From positions 1 through 40,480 of IMG/VR virus record IMGVR_UViG_2718218098_000005: a stretch of 40,480 nucleotides of DNA, one strand, 5' to 3'. Of the stretch, positions 23,991 to 36,609 are shown piece by piece. The stretch is from a virus. Taxonomy: Duplodnaviria > Heunggongvirae > Uroviricota > Caudoviricetes. The translations under genes were made by a program, and so were the position numbers. Below the pieces are notes generated by a model. It did no database searches. It was not told the DNA's origin and saw nothing but the letters and a program-made list of their open reading frames with translations. The first letter of the stretch is position 1; every line of letters begins with the position of its first letter.

Positions 23991-24065
<75 letters not shown>

Positions 24066-24068
24066 ATA

Positions 24069-24144
<76 letters not shown>

Positions 24145-24146
24145 AC

Positions 24147-24223
24147 TGGACCGCCACCGGGGACTCGAACCTCGCACACTCAACTTAAAGTGTTGACGCT
24201 CTTTCCTGATGAACTAGTAGCGG
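24147..24223 (-). tRNA. tRNA-like, probable anticodon TTT (Lys) with C33
   Basis: Acceptor CCGCTAC/GTGGCGG, 5-bp anticodon stem TCAAC/GTTGA, loop ACTTTAA, T-loop TTCGAGT, CCA encoded. Confidence 0.5.
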
Positions 24224-24224
24224 T

Positions 24225-24300
24225 TGGTGGCCCTGGCTGGATTTGAACCAGCGACCTGGCGATTATGAGTCGCTCGCTCTCACCACTGAGCTAAAGGGCC
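24225..24300 (-). tRNA. tRNA-Ile2-like (anticodon CAT; ileX/ileZ type)
   Basis: Strong similarity by recollection to E. coli ileX; anticodon loop CTCATAA; CCA encoded. Confidence 0.8.
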
Positions 24301-27388: not shown

Positions 27389-27544
27389 TTACTCCTCAGG
27401 TTCGTAAGCTGTGAAGACAGCGACCTCCGTCTGGCCGGTTCGGATTCGTACCTCGCAGAGGTCTTTCCTCGTTACCAGTGCTGTCACTATGACGGTTAAA
27501 CAGATGACGATCAGGGCGATTAACATCGCCTTTTGCTGCTTCAT
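27389..27544 (-). CDS. hokD: Hok/Gef family type I toxin (HokD/RelF-like, 51 aa)
   Basis: MKQQKAMLIALIVICLTVIVTALVTRKDLCEVRIRTGQTEVAVFTAYEPEE matches HokD by recollection; single TM + conserved Cys. Confidence 0.85.
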   Translation of the reverse strand: MKQQKAMLIALIVICLTVIVTALVTRKDLCEVRIRTGQTEVAVFTAYEPEE

Positions 27545-27816: not shown

Positions 27817-28208
27817 CGATTCACCTCCTGCTCAATATTTTTAAGGTCATTTTCCGCATACAGTATTGCTGTCCTGGTTGCTCGTAACCGGGCTTTGGCG
27901 TTTTTCTCTTCACGTTCAAGTTTTGCCACAGCTTCACGAAGAGCATCTCGCTTTGCATAGAGTGATTTAATCTCTGATACGATGTTTTCACCGTTTCTCG
28001 CACGGTCGAGAACAAGTTCGAACGGATCTAAAGTCAATCCACACCGTTTGCAGGTAATCGTACGATTCACTTCTGAAATTGTTGTACGGATATGCTGACA
28101 GCATTTTTGCTCGACACTTTTTTCGTCGGTTATCACAACGTTGAGAAGTCCTTCCTCCTCTGATTTTGGCTGTACCAGAGTGATAACATTGTCGACTTCA
28201 TTTTTCAT
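27813..28208 (-). CDS. Hypothetical zinc-ribbon + coiled-coil protein (paralog A2)
   Basis: C-x-H ... C-K-R-C-G motif then coiled coil with EKNAKARLR; paralogous to 30638..30994. Confidence 0.6.
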   Translation of the reverse strand: MKNEVDNVITLVQPKSEEEGLLNVVITDEKSVEQKCCQHIRTTISEVNRTITCKRCGLTLDPFELVLDRARNGENIVSEIKSLYAKRDALREAVAKLEREEKNAKARLRATRTAILYAENDLKNIEQEVNR

Positions 28209-28873
28209 CAGTTCACCTCCTGCGGTGGCTCCGGTAGCGGCATCCAGTGAGTTGCCTGCTCAATACCATTACCCGGCTTAATCGTTGCTTCTCCTCGCCG
28301 GAATGTGCTTCCTGTATAGCGTGCGGAGCATATTAGCGGTTCAACCAGAGAGCTATCGAAATTCACCGAAATAAGCACGTTCTGGTTCTTTTCCGGCATT
28401 CGCTCACCACAGCTTATCCAACCAGCCGGAGTTCCCGGAGAGCTGGTTGACGTTTCCGAGATTTCCCGAAAATTGTTGGTTGACGAATTCTTATTTTCCC
28501 GAAAGTTTCCGGCCTGAAGCATGGCGACGCGGCAATCGTTCCATCCTTCAGCATAATCACTATACGCAAGAGGCCAACCTCTTATGTATTCACGCGGCAA
28601 CTTATCAGGCACTACCAGCGCTGGCGGCGCGGAGAATAGTGGTTTAGGTGATATTTCCGCACGTTTTGCGTATGCTTCAACTGTGTCAGGGTTAAACAGG
28701 ATTATGTTTTCACCGCATTCCCACGCCACCGGCTCTGCTTCCAGTGACGCCAGTGCGATACGAAACACATTGGCAAGCAGGCTGTCTGAAGATTGGTTAT
28801 CGTGCGCCGGGTCGCTCAGGAAACCAGTGATGAATGATTTAATTTCCGCGTTTTCTCTGGTAATAGTGGTCAT
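28208..28873 (-). CDS. Hypothetical protein (paralog B2) with C-terminal DUF551-like segment
   Basis: N-terminus MTTITRE and RIALASLEAEPVAW shared with 29081..29593; C-terminal ..ATHWMPLPEPP. Confidence 0.6.
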   Translation of the reverse strand: MTTITRENAEIKSFITGFLSDPAHDNQSSDSLLANVFRIALASLEAEPVAWECGENIILFNPDTVEAYAKRAEISPKPLFSAPPALVVPDKLPREYIRGWPLAYSDYAEGWNDCRVAMLQAGNFRENKNSSTNNFREISETSTSSPGTPAGWISCGERMPEKNQNVLISVNFDSSLVEPLICSARYTGSTFRRGEATIKPGNGIEQATHWMPLPEPPQEVN

Positions 28874-29080: not shown

Positions 29081-29593
29081 TCAGTCTCCTTTGATGTCAG
29101 CGTTTACAACCTGGCAGGCCTCTTTGAGCACCCAGTCAACAGCGTCTTTCCATGCTCCGGTTTCGACTGGCGGATTTTCACGCTTAACCTGTTCATAGAA
29201 GCGCACTGCTTTAATCAATCCTTCTGGTGTCAGTGGCACAGGCGGGGCAGTGAATAACGCCTGAATTTCATAGTTCGGCCTGTCGTTGCAATCCTCTTTT
29301 GTCGGTACATATTTCCAGTCACCAACCCACGGCTCCCCCTGTGAGTCCGTAATGCCTTTTTTCACGTAGCGATATCGCCATGCCATCGGTTCTGCTTCCA
29401 GCGATGCCAGAGCAATCCGCGCCAGTTCGCGCACAACTTCCGGCGGCGCGTAACGGTCATTCAGGTCATCCCACAGGAGTAGCATGTTATCGCTACCAGG
29501 GTGAACATCCTCGTTAGTTCCGGCAAGCGCACTAATAACCTCTTCGGCTGCTTCAATAATTTTCAGAGCTTGTTCTCTGGTAATAGTGGTCAT
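29081..29593 (-). CDS. Hypothetical protein (paralog B1)
   Basis: Start at ATG 29593 (MTTITREQ) with AAAGGAGAG upstream; shares N-terminal domain with 28208..28873. Confidence 0.6.
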   Translation of the reverse strand: MTTITREQALKIIEAAEEVISALAGTNEDVHPGSDNMLLLWDDLNDRYAPPEVVRELARIALASLEAEPMAWRYRYVKKGITDSQGEPWVGDWKYVPTKEDCNDRPNYEIQALFTAPPVPLTPEGLIKAVRFYEQVKRENPPVETGAWKDAVDWVLKEACQVVNADIKGD

Positions 29594-29594
29594 A

Positions 29595-30197
29595 TCACTC
29601 TCCTTTGATGCAAATGACAGCGGCGCGGGAATCATCCCATCGCTTTACTTCTTCACGAATTACGTCAATGCATTCTTTCGAATCCATTAGGTAATCTTCA
29701 TCAAAAAGACGTTCCTGTTCGTTTTCTATCGCAACAATGATTGCTTCAACTAACTTTTGTGCCTGAGAACCACTTTCTAACCCTGCTATGCGCTTACTTC
29801 CATCCGAGATAACACCTTCGTAATACTCACGCTGCTCGTTGAGTTTTGATTTTGTCTCCTCAAGCTCAGCAACCAGTTTTCGAAGCCCTTCAATCTCACC
29901 ATTACGAGCAATGAGGTCGCGGCACATGCTTTCGTTCTCATCCAGCAGTGCCAGTACGGTAGCCGGGTTAGCCTCTGCTATAAATGCTGCGTTTGCATGA
30001 GCCTGAGCATCTGTTTCAACCAGGCAGTTAACATGACATTCTGCAATCACGCCACCTGGTTCTCCTTTCCATTTTTGACAAACAAAAACTCCTGTTAAAT
30101 TACCGTGCTGGTTAACAGATGTATGCCCTACGATGTAGCCTCCTTTAGTTGCTTTCTCTGCCTTATCCCGCAGCATCTGATAGTTAATCCCGCTCAT
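29595..30197 (-). CDS. Hypothetical protein, possibly Ead/Ea22-like (200 aa, C-terminal coiled coil)
   Basis: ATGA overlap with upstream small ORF; family assignment tentative. Confidence 0.55.
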   Translation of the reverse strand: MSGINYQMLRDKAEKATKGGYIVGHTSVNQHGNLTGVFVCQKWKGEPGGVIAECHVNCLVETDAQAHANAAFIAEANPATVLALLDENESMCRDLIARNGEIEGLRKLVAELEETKSKLNEQREYYEGVISDGSKRIAGLESGSQAQKLVEAIIVAIENEQERLFDEDYLMDSKECIDVIREEVKRWDDSRAAVICIKGE

Positions 30198-30370
30198 TCA
30201 TCGCCCCACTCATCACAATATGCTTCGACCGGAGTTTTCCCTGCTTCATAATCATCACGCCATGCTTCAGCATCAGCAGCACTTCCACCGCGTAACTCTG
30301 CATAATCCATTAACAATTCATGCCATTCTTCAAAACTGACGTTATATTTAGTTGAACCAAAATCAGCCAT
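30194..30370 (-). CDS. Unannotated small acidic protein (58 aa)
   Basis: MADFGSTKYNVSFEEWHELLMDYAELRGGSAADAEAWRDDYEAGKTPVEAYCDEWGDE; RBS GAGGAAG; ATGA overlap with downstream gene. Confidence 0.5.
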   Translation of the reverse strand: MADFGSTKYNVSFEEWHELLMDYAELRGGSAADAEAWRDDYEAGKTPVEAYCDEWGDE

Positions 30371-30371
30371 T

Positions 30372-30545
30372 TTATTCTTCCTCTTCGCCTTTTATTTCGT
30401 GGTATGAGTAATTGCAGTAGTTAAAGAAAATTTCTTTTGCTTCGTCATGAATTTCATCAGGTGTTGCGTCATCGTCTACTTCGAATACATCCTCAAAATC
30501 TCCACCGGCTATTCCCGTCTCGATAATTATTTTAAATTTTCGCAT
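30372..30545 (-). CDS. Unannotated small acidic protein (57 aa)
   Basis: MRKFKIIIETGIAGGDFEDVFEVDDDATPDEIHDEAKEIFFNYCNYSYHEIKGEEEE; stop 1 nt before next ATG. Confidence 0.45.
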   Translation of the reverse strand: MRKFKIIIETGIAGGDFEDVFEVDDDATPDEIHDEAKEIFFNYCNYSYHEIKGEEEE

Positions 30546-30637
30546 TTCACTACCGTCCTGCCGGGCGGCCTCCTTATGTTCTGAGGGTGCAGAAATCCCT
30601 CCTGTTAAGGATTAATTTTTAGCAGTGCTAAATTTAA

Positions 30638-30994
30638 TTATTCAGTTCTGGATTTTGTCGCTCTGCGTATCCGCGCTTTCGCGTTACGCTCAATCTGAAT
30701 TAGCTTTTCTATATTTTTTCGCCTTTCCTGTTCCTCCTGGCGCAATAGCCTTACATCATCTGCCAGTCTGGTTTCTCTTTTCGCCACAGAGAGCATCCAG
30801 TCAAATGGCTCCACAACTGCACCGCAGATTTTACAGCGGACCTGACGCTCTTTTTCGTCAACCCGGACAGAAGCGTGATGGCAGTATGGTTTTTCCGATG
30901 GCTCATAAAGAAAATTAACCTGATTACGTGGGTCATCCTCTTTTACCGGAAATAAAACAATATTACTTAACTCATCTTCTGGTTTTATTTCCAT
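30638..30994 (-). CDS. Hypothetical zinc-ribbon + coiled-coil protein (paralog A1)
   Basis: Start ATG 30994 (MEIKPED) after AAAGGAGAGGAGC; C-x-H-H ... C-K-I-C-G; ERNAKARIR as in 27813..28208. Confidence 0.6.
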   Translation of the reverse strand: MEIKPEDELSNIVLFPVKEDDPRNQVNFLYEPSEKPYCHHASVRVDEKERQVRCKICGAVVEPFDWMLSVAKRETRLADDVRLLRQEEQERRKNIEKLIQIERNAKARIRRATKSRTE

Positions 30995-31051
30995 GCTCCT
31001 CTCCTTTGATGCGAATGCCAGCGGCAATTGAAGCCTGATAGCTAATTTCAC

Positions 31052-31480
31052 TCACAGCATCACCTCCTGAAAACTCCCCTGATAAAACGCCAGCACGCGC
31101 TGCATAACTTCGCTCTTCCGGCACTCGCTACAGATTATGTTCTGACGCCTGTCGTAGCGGCGTATCTCTCCGTCTGGTAACTTTCGAATCAGCGTCTGGT
31201 CAGTTGTTTTCTCCGGTGTCTTACGCCATTCGCGATACGTCTGCTCTGACGCAAAAACACCGTATTTACCGGACATGTATAAATCGCCACAAGCCAGCAC
31301 ATCCACAAGGCAGCGTCGGACCGAATGCCAGCCAGCCCCAGTCGCTCTCTCCAGCTGCGACATCGTCATGCGTTCATTTTTGCGCACCAGAACGATGATT
31401 CGAGTCTTCAGCTCCTCCCGTTGTTCGGGTGTGTATACTTTTGCCACAAGCCCTCCTGAAAAATCACCTTCACAATTCAT
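31052..31480 (-). CDS. Hypothetical protein (142 aa), possible winged-helix regulator
   Basis: ATGA overlap with P-like gene stop; internal HTH-like segment MSQLERATGAGWHSVRRCLVDV. Confidence 0.55.
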   Translation of the reverse strand: MNCEGDFSGGLVAKVYTPEQREELKTRIIVLVRKNERMTMSQLERATGAGWHSVRRCLVDVLACGDLYMSGKYGVFASEQTYREWRKTPEKTTDQTLIRKLPDGEIRRYDRRQNIICSECRKSEVMQRVLAFYQGSFQEVML

Positions 31481-36232: not shown

Positions 36233-36421
36233 ATGGAAACGTTATTACCAAACGTTAATACGTCTGAAGGTTGTTTTGAAATTGGTGTCACTATCAGTAA
36301 CCCTGTATTTACTGAAGATGCCATTAACAAGAGAAAACAAGAACGGGAGCTATTAAATAAAATATGCATTGTTTCAATGCTGGCTCGTTTACGTCTGATG
36401 CCAAAAGGATGTGCACAATGA
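36233..36421 (+). CDS. dicB: DicB cell-division inhibitor (62 aa)
   Basis: METLLPNVNTSEGCFEIGVTISNPVFTEDAINKRKQERELLNKICIVSMLARLRLMPKGCAQ matches DicB by recollection; ORF-track N-terminal extension rejected. Confidence 0.9.
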   Translation: METLLPNVNTSEGCFEIGVTISNPVFTEDAINKRKQERELLNKICIVSMLARLRLMPKGCAQ

Positions 36422-36609
36422 ATTCAGCATTTGCGCTTGTTCTGACAGTTTTTCTTGTTTCCGGAGAACCAGTTGATATTGCAGTCAGTGTTCACAGGAC
36501 AATGCAGGAGTGTATGACTGCAGCAACCGAACAGAAAATTCCCGGTAACTGTTACCCGGTCGATAAAGTTATTAACCAGGATAATATCGAAATCCCGGCA
36601 GGTCTTTAA
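36418..36609 (+). CDS. ydfD: YdfD-like lysis protein (63 aa)
   Basis: MNSAFALVLTVFLVSGEP.. TM N-terminus; ATGA overlap with dicB stop; synteny with Qin. Confidence 0.75.
   Translation: MNSAFALVLTVFLVSGEPVDIAVSVHRTMQECMTAATEQKIPGNCYPVDKVINQDNIEIPAGL

Follow-up and report, generated by a model that had tools for sequence, protein, structure and literature searches.

Two small, strongly acidic accessory genes in a lambda-like prophage of Escherichia coli belong to widespread families already catalogued as uncharacterised

Two neighbouring open reading frames, here called ORF-A and ORF-B, in a stretch of viral DNA of 40,480 nucleotides (the window) are real and conserved, and both belong to protein families already catalogued as uncharacterised. 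Substitution patterns among related loci and the conservation of their predicted cores indicate protein-coding genes under purifying selection, and the genes are found as mobile accessory modules well beyond lambdoid phages. The present analysis adds evidence that they are coding, fold predictions for both proteins, a survey of where they occur and a map of the module in which they move, and function is not among these additions.

Genomic setting

The window is nearly a whole lambda-like E. coli prophage, and the 1.6 kb around both genes (positions 29500-31100) are 100% identical to the chromosomes of the mouse isolates M19, M15, M11, M9 and M6. In RefSeq, the M19 region has the integrase at the right end of the prophage, while the immunity region, replication genes, nin-like stretch, RusA, Q, lysis, head and tail genes are all encoded on the minus strand and run leftwards. 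The two small ORFs of 57 and 58 aa proposed in the initial annotation, which gave no strand, are both present and also lie on the minus strand (Table 1). They were described as unannotated, which is true of the earlier ORF track only, as RefSeq annotates both in the identical E. coli M19 record: ORF-A as WP_172944232.1 (RG63_RS29455, "DUF7167 family protein") and ORF-B as WP_000753060.1 (RG63_RS29450, "hypothetical protein").

Table 1 Features of the ORF-A/ORF-B region, with positions in the window.
Feature	Position	Strand	Description
Ead/Ea22-like ORF	29595..30197	-	Downstream of ORF-B; flagged by PGAP as a truncated pseudogene
ORF-B	30194..30370	-	58 aa; phrog_519
ORF-A	30372..30545	-	57 aa; DUF7167, phrog_1997
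Codons of the ORF-A EEEE tail (GAA GAG GAA GAA)	30375..30386	-	GAGGA, Shine-Dalgarno-like motif 9-13 nt upstream of the ORF-B ATG
Leader	30546..30637	-	From the zinc-ribbon gene to ORF-A; Shine-Dalgarno AAGGAGG 30575-30569; hairpin 30569-30552
Zinc-ribbon gene	30638..30994	-	Upstream of ORF-A; phrog_1621, function unknown

Both genes belong to the rightward operon and lie in its nin-like, delayed-early part, with the replication genes on one side and RusA and Q on the other. The replication block contains a DnaT-like O, P, a DUF977/Ren-like gene and the zinc-ribbon gene, and the variable accessory block contains the Ead/Ea22-like gene, DUF551, hokD, DUF968, RusA and Q. The classical early-left region is not where ORF-A and ORF-B of the window lie.

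The conservation of the surroundings differs between the two sides of the gene pair. Among 215 viral contigs that bear both genes with sufficient flanking sequence, the leader upstream of ORF-A accompanies the pair in 207 and the zinc-ribbon gene precedes it in 156; in Stx2a phage ArgO145, the zinc-ribbon gene is gp17. The slot downstream of ORF-B is variable, and only 13 of the 215 contigs carry the window's version of the gene found there. Given the retention of the leader and the zinc-ribbon gene and the rarity of the downstream gene, there is thus a mosaic joint after ORF-B.

Selection on the two reading frames and acidity of the products

Selection was assessed on haplotypes, defined as the distinct variants among several hundred related loci gathered from viral contigs. 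In the annotated frame, 56 intact haplotypes of ORF-A give a pN/pS of 0.20 and 53 of ORF-B one of 0.15, and four of the five other frames give values of 1.1-2.9. The exception is the antisense frame with the same third codon positions, and a low pN/pS in an antisense frame sharing third codon positions is a known artefact. Substitutions among homologs of ORF-A and ORF-B are conservative, and the hydrophobic core is kept in protein homologs of both with as little as 40-60% identity. Taken together, the low ratios in the annotated frames and the kept core lead to the conclusion that, judged by how they vary, ORF-A and ORF-B are genuine protein-coding genes under purifying selection. The initial annotation had made its case depend on conservation of the frames in homologous prophages, and it survives this check, as the frames are conserved there and evolve under purifying selection.

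The high acidity noted for both products is confirmed. ORF-A has 18 D+E against 5 K+R (net charge -13, pI 4.17) and ORF-B 16 D+E against 4 K+R (net charge -12, pI 4.05). Per residue, with -0.23 and -0.21, they rank first and second in acidity among the 57 annotated CDS of the window, the next one reaching -0.12. The median net charge is -12 among 46 relatives of ORF-A (range -17 to -6) and -10 among 36 relatives of ORF-B; by the composition of these relatives, strong acidity is a family-wide trait of both proteins. In distant relatives of both proteins, the invariant or near-invariant positions are mainly core hydrophobic or aromatic residues, joined in ORF-A by acidic residues around a DDAT motif. 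Other acidic residues shift position among relatives, unlike the invariant core, and a fixed core combined with shifting acidic positions would fit a charge-driven surface on a fixed scaffold.

Protein families and predicted folds

ORF-A matches the Pfam family DUF7167 (PF23768) with 52.9 bits, where the gathering cut-off is 24.4 bits (E 3.9e-14; residues 2-52 on profile positions 1-59 of 60), and phrog_1997 with an E value of 3e-30 (residues 1-57 on profile positions 1-57 of 57). On the strength of these profile matches, it is a plain member of the already catalogued DUF7167/phrog_1997 family, and relatives occur in prophages of Klebsiella, Citrobacter, Pantoea and Pseudomonas. The AlphaFold2 model (pLDDT 87.7) consists of a beta-hairpin (residues 2-8 and 17-23) and a subsequent helix (29-43), so that ORF-A is predicted to form a beta-hairpin packed on an amphipathic helix, and its C-terminal part comprises a conserved aromatic tail followed by a poly-Glu end.

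ORF-B matched no Pfam family. It aligns to phrog_519 with an E value of 4.5e-23, covering profile positions 76-137 of 143 only; these positions represent the C-terminal core, to which some members add further sequence at the N-terminus. By this match, ORF-B is a member of phrog_519, which is likewise already catalogued and has 261 members of unknown function (PMC9409062). An exhaustive profile search recovered 74 cluster representatives of ORF-B relatives, most of them 48-75 aa long, and the relatives are in general acidic proteins of about 50-65 aa from temperate enterobacterial phages and virulent Ackermannviridae. Using tblastn, relatives were found in 198 phage records, many of them from virulent Ackermannviridae (Kuttervirus, Taipeivirus). 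AlphaFold2 (pLDDT 87.7) predicts a three-helix bundle for ORF-B, with helices at residues 13-27, 34-42 and 47-55, and the alignment of distant relatives shows W16, L20, W37, Y41, G44 and P47 to be invariant or nearly so.

Searches for a known function or relative were broad. Scans of Pfam, NCBIfam and PADLOC for a functional label returned DUF7167 only for ORF-A and none for ORF-B; neither ORF had a match in NCBIfam, nor among the PADLOC defence-system models at E values up to 0.1. Profile searches against the sequences of the PDB gave only noise for both ORFs. Fold matches in BFVD were to uncharacterised phage proteins of about 57 aa only, e.g., from phAPEC8 and Lactococcus phage 949, and as the fold-search matches were judged generic, they were not used for function. 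No papers were found in the literature on DUF7167, on either WP accession or on peptide strings.

Comparison with proteins of well-studied phages was similarly negative. No homology was found to lambda Orf55, Orf60a, Orf61, Orf63, Ea8.5, Ea10, Ral, Kil, CIII, Ren, NinD, NinE, NinF or NinH, and when lambda proteins were compared with the two family profiles, the best E values were 0.29 for ORF-A and 0.075 for ORF-B in a database of 16 sequences. Aligning the ORF-A family to lambda Orf55 with hhalign gave a probability of 0.1%, and the Pfam models for NinE, NinF and NinH matched neither ORF. The ORFs of the first 16 kb of T7, including those of Ocr, Gp0.4 and Gp2, contained no homolog either.

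Junctions, leader and translation signals

The tight packing reported for the two genes is correct by coordinates at both junctions. The TAA of ORF-A (30374-30372) and the ATG of ORF-B (30370-30368) are separated by a single spacer base at 30371, and the TGA of ORF-B (30196-30194) shares bases with the ATG (30197-30195) that opens the downstream Ead/Ea22-like ORF, in the arrangement ATGA. The 1-nt spacer is a minority state, however, as ORF-A is 60 aa long and has an 8-nt overlap with the ORF-B start in most haplotypes. A CAA to TAA change in the window shortens ORF-A and creates the spacer. Across the haplotypes, GAGGA or GGAGGA is retained at all A-to-B junctions. Since GAGGA lies inside the last codons of ORF-A, part of the acidic tail doubles as the ribosome-binding site of ORF-B.

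Upstream of ORF-A, the sole strong Shine-Dalgarno sequence lies 23 nt from the ATG, with a conserved GC-rich hairpin in between. The family consensus of this hairpin is CCGCCC-GAAA-GGGCGG with a GNRA loop, and the version in the window, CCGCCC-GGCA-GGACGG, has one mismatch. Pairing is possible in 95% of cells (17 haplotypes), and the haplotypes include one compensatory change and nine one-sided changes that keep the pair, mostly C to U wobble; covariation did not rise above that of shuffled controls. The hairpin was considered as a terminator and rejected, as it lacks a subsequent T-run and the scan gave no hit there. The same leader contained no promoter-like or terminator-like site in the scan. 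Weak promoter-like matches (9/12) were located at 30225-30252 and 30320-30348 on the plus strand within ORF-B and at 30098-30071 on the minus strand within the Ead ORF, and three such matches are about what the chance rate would give.

Distribution, pairing and mobility

ORF-A-like DNA is present in 1619 of 5426 complete E. coli genomes (30%) and ORF-B-like DNA in 1877 of these (35%). Of 327 fetched loci, which had been picked by similarity, 307 have the two genes next to each other and translationally linked. An obligate pairing of ORF-A and ORF-B was nonetheless rejected, as each gene stands alone in most distant contexts. ORF-A is found without ORF-B in Klebsiella prophages, where its neighbours are Ead/DUF551 genes, in a P2-like Pseudomonas element and at loci L329 and L170-L175. 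ORF-B is found without ORF-A in Enterobacter prophages, where it follows Ead/Ea22-like genes in the exo-xis position, in P2-like phages, where it follows a replication gene, and at loci L250-L253 and L313-L314. In virulent Ackermannviridae, a homolog of ORF-B without ORF-A is located after the major head gene.

Other arrangements were observed as well. A Pantoea prophage carries a diverged B-like gene followed by a diverged A-like gene, i.e., in reversed order, in the pL operon between N and cIII, and one viral contig contains three tandem DUF7167 paralogs. [quoted passage not shown] Ead/Ea22-like genes are the immediate neighbours of ORF-B in E. coli and also in three contexts from Enterobacter; xis and int lie alongside in two of these three. 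A scan for DUF7167 in one genome per species yielded 3 loci only, too few for co-occurrence statistics. Throughout, both genes are always found among small accessory genes of phage operons, and they are mobile accessory modules that are mutually independent in distant phages.

Possible functions

Most likely, as we tentatively propose, the two proteins use their acidic surface to bind a protein of the host or of a rival. ORF-A and ORF-B, whose expression timing we infer, would be part of a minus-strand transcript that includes the replication genes and runs towards Q, and ORF-A and then ORF-B would be translated in tight succession, with the ribosome-binding site of ORF-B within the last codons of ORF-A. 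Each product would be a compact, single-domain, strongly acidic cytoplasmic protein, probably too small and too negative for DNA binding or a role as an enzyme. It could bind stoichiometrically to a basic surface on its partner, a protein of the host or a competitor that may itself bind nucleic acid, and this partner might then be blocked or retuned in early phage development, although both the inhibition and the target are what we infer. The family-wide acidity and the location of ORF-A and ORF-B among small accessory genes make such a protein-binding inhibitor role plausible. Several observations count against it: a pN/pS of 0.15-0.2 without the rapid diversification that is often typical of counter-defence genes, the acidic tail of ORF-A being partly explained by the ribosome-binding site of ORF-B, and the position of the Ackermannviridae homolog of ORF-B after the major head gene, which is not obviously early. 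Should binding and inhibition of a host or defence protein prove true, two very widespread inhibitor families would be gained, as the genes reach 30-35% of complete E. coli genomes and Stx-converting phages, and ORF-B also phages considered for therapy. An inhibitor role would also go some way towards explaining why lambdoid phages have such hypervariable gene pools in their exo-xis and nin regions.

A more specific form of this proposal, that one or both proteins are founding members of new charge-mimicking inhibitor families directed against host nucleic-acid enzymes or defence, is doubtful; in such a case, restriction enzymes, RecBCD-type nucleases or RNA polymerase might be the targets, and the adjacency of the two genes, recurring in E. 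coli and, reversed, in Pantoea, could reflect action on a common pathway. The initial annotation had suggested DNA mimics or host-factor inhibitors, and the inhibitor half remains plausible given the acidity of the families and the accessory context, while nothing specific speaks for mimicry or for a target. The acidic density and very low pI of DNA mimics of the Ocr, ArdA, p56 and Arn type are matched by both ORFs, but no sequence or fold similarity to these mimics was detected, and DNA mimicry in the strict sense, aimed at restriction or repair enzymes, seems distinctly unlikely. ORF-A and ORF-B share strong negative charge and a neighbourhood of non-essential phage genes with p56, Gp2, Ocr and ArdA, which are general properties only. 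T7 Gp2 is a small acidic phage inhibitor of similar size. Both p56 and Gp2 are about 55-65 aa long and thus in the size range of ORF-A and ORF-B, and phi29 p56, an acidic protein of 56 aa, inhibits UDG (PMC2018632). Lambda Orf55 has been modelled by Donaldson as a p56- or Gp2-like strand-and-helix protein, and the build of ORF-A falls in the general class described there for p56, Gp2 and Orf55 (PMC8614690). Neither ORF showed significant structural similarity to p56, Gp2, Ocr or ArdA. The modelling of Orf55 serves as an analogy for ORF-A and implies no relationship.

ORF-A and ORF-B might be modulators of the lysis-lysogeny decision like the exo-xis proteins, tuning host physiology or transcription rather than countering defence, which we regard as unlikely. 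The exo-xis proteins of lambda and Stx phages (Orf60a, Orf61, Orf63, Orf73, Ea22, Ea8.5, Orf55) are, like ORF-A and ORF-B, small, early and biochemically ill-defined; they occupy the same genomic niche as the two genes in Stx2a phages and have Ead/Ea22-like neighbours, and according to published reports, exo-xis genes shift both lysogenisation and induction (PMC3824215, PMC7093339, PMC8614690). These reported effects, the module inside the exo-xis region of ArgO145 and the repeated placement of ORF-B beside Ead/Ea22-like genes in E. coli and the three Enterobacter contexts would agree with such a role. The likeness is one of position, being nin-like here and exo-xis in ArgO145 and the Enterobacter prophages, whereas no lambda exo-xis or nin protein is related in sequence to ORF-A or ORF-B, and the module of the window is placed in the rightward nin-like region instead. 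Moreover, strictly virulent Ackermannviridae carry ORF-B, as do P2-like phages that have no Ead genes, and ORF-A is found in P2-like Pseudomonas elements. Because homologs of both exist outside lambdoid phages, a function that depends on the lysogeny circuit of lambdoid phages cannot be general. That the two proteins form a two-subunit complex and act as a functional pair is more improbable still. Their adjacency and translational linkage in 307 of 327 loci, albeit loci chosen by similarity, and the neighbouring B-like and A-like genes of Pantoea, in reversed order and in another operon, would fit a complex, but each gene is found without its partner in most distant contexts, and the large negative charge on both proteins disfavours direct mutual binding.

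Binding of a host or rival protein is also to be preferred over two further proposals, to each of which we give very little credence. ORF-B, and perhaps ORF-A too, could be an anti-CRISPR protein: the machine-learning predictor PaCRISPR counted members of phrog_519 from Kuttervirus among its anti-CRISPR candidates (PMC9409062), and small, acidic proteins encoded in accessory regions would suit this role. Neither ORF has homology to a validated Acr, and the pair has no Aca-type helix-turn-helix neighbour, being flanked by the zinc-ribbon and Ead/Ea22-like genes. Alternatively, ORF-A and ORF-B could be short translated spacers, where coupling and mRNA structure matter for the downstream genes and the proteins themselves do not. 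The tight packing (a single spacer base in the window, where most haplotypes overlap by 8 nt, and the ATGA junction), the ribosome-binding site of ORF-B in the tail of ORF-A and the conserved hairpin in the ORF-A leader are all compatible with spacers. Against this stand the purifying selection at the amino-acid level, which is specific to the annotated frames, and the homologs of 40-60% identity in other genera and phage families, with their conserved core and confidently predicted folds.

Leader and junction of the ORF-A/ORF-B pair

In the leader of the DUF7167-family ORF-A, the sole strong Shine-Dalgarno sequence, AAGGAGG, and the ATG are 23 nt apart, and the stretch between them holds a conserved GC-rich hairpin capped by a GNRA loop. 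The hairpin consensus is CCGCCC-GAAA-GGGCGG, with one C.A mismatch in the window copy. Folding of the hairpin would shorten the distance from the Shine-Dalgarno sequence to the ORF-A AUG to around 7 nt. Changes in the hairpin are mostly wobble-compatible, a single compensatory GC to AU change also occurs, and its covariation is without statistical significance.

The majority of haplotypes have a 60-aa ORF-A that ends in EEEEQNG and overlaps the phrog_519-family ORF-B by 8 nt. A CAA to TAA change in the window leads to the 57-aa ORF-A and a 1-nt spacer before ORF-B. Some database proteins consist of ORF-A or ORF-B fused to upstream reading frames, as in P0148 (146 aa), combining PF24233 and DUF7167, and P0195 (127 aa). 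Numerous other entries are extended at the N-terminus, since the frame 5' of the ORF-A ATG is open in many haplotypes, and the ORF-A start is therefore annotated inconsistently between genomes.

Features of the window and of related loci
Feature	Location	Strand	Remark
tRNA-Gly and tRNA-Ile downstream of Q; hokD in nin-like region	window 23991-24300 and 27389-27544	-	
DUF551 gene	window 28208-28873	-	
184-aa ORF	window 29081-29635	-	overlaps Ead/Ea22-like ORF
Ead/Ea22-like ORF	window 29595-30197	-	truncated pseudogene per PGAP
ORF-A poly-Glu tail codons GAAGAGGAAGAA	window 30371-30386	-	hold ORF-B ribosome-binding site
GC-rich hairpin and Shine-Dalgarno, ORF-A leader	window 30552-30575	-	conserved; GNRA loop
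dicB/ydfD, leftward operon	window 36233-36609		
Diverged ORF-B-like gene, then diverged DUF7167 gene	L164 3776-4177		Pantoea anthophila prophage
Three tandem DUF7167-like paralogs	L175 2297-2491, 2491-2745, 2983-3144		IMG/VR contig 3300008575_000024
ORF-B family member	L337 3474-3668		Salmonella phage dinky
ORF-B family member	L338 3501-3653		Klebsiella phage 0507-KN2-1

Genomic context

The tRNA genes, the toxin gene hokD and dicB/ydfD mark the prophage as a Qin/Rac-type mosaic. Downstream of the pair, the 184-aa ORF and the DUF551 gene have the N-terminal segments 'MTTITRE' and 'IALASLEAEPxAW' in common, which look like repeated recombination modules.

Among the distant contexts found, the two families are adjacent only in the Pantoea anthophila prophage, where 69 nt separate the genes and their order is opposite to that in E. 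coli. This pair is located in the pL operon, with an N-like gene on one side and cIII on the other. Each of the three L175 paralogs is acidic, with net charges of -10, -15 and -10. The ORF-B family is also carried by virulent Ackermannviridae (L337, L338), in a small-gene cluster that directly follows the gene for the major head protein; the matching stretch of Klebsiella phage 0507-KN2-1 has no gene annotation of its own.

Finally, the E. coli-type module is found at about 11.3-11.8 kb of PP818812.1 (hits H38 and H76), with an identity of 92% at the nucleotide and 96.5% at the protein level. This record is labelled 'Actinobacillus phage vB_Apl-pPE4', and the module is surprising for a Pasteurellaceae host; the record may be mislabelled or represent a contaminating E. 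coli prophage.
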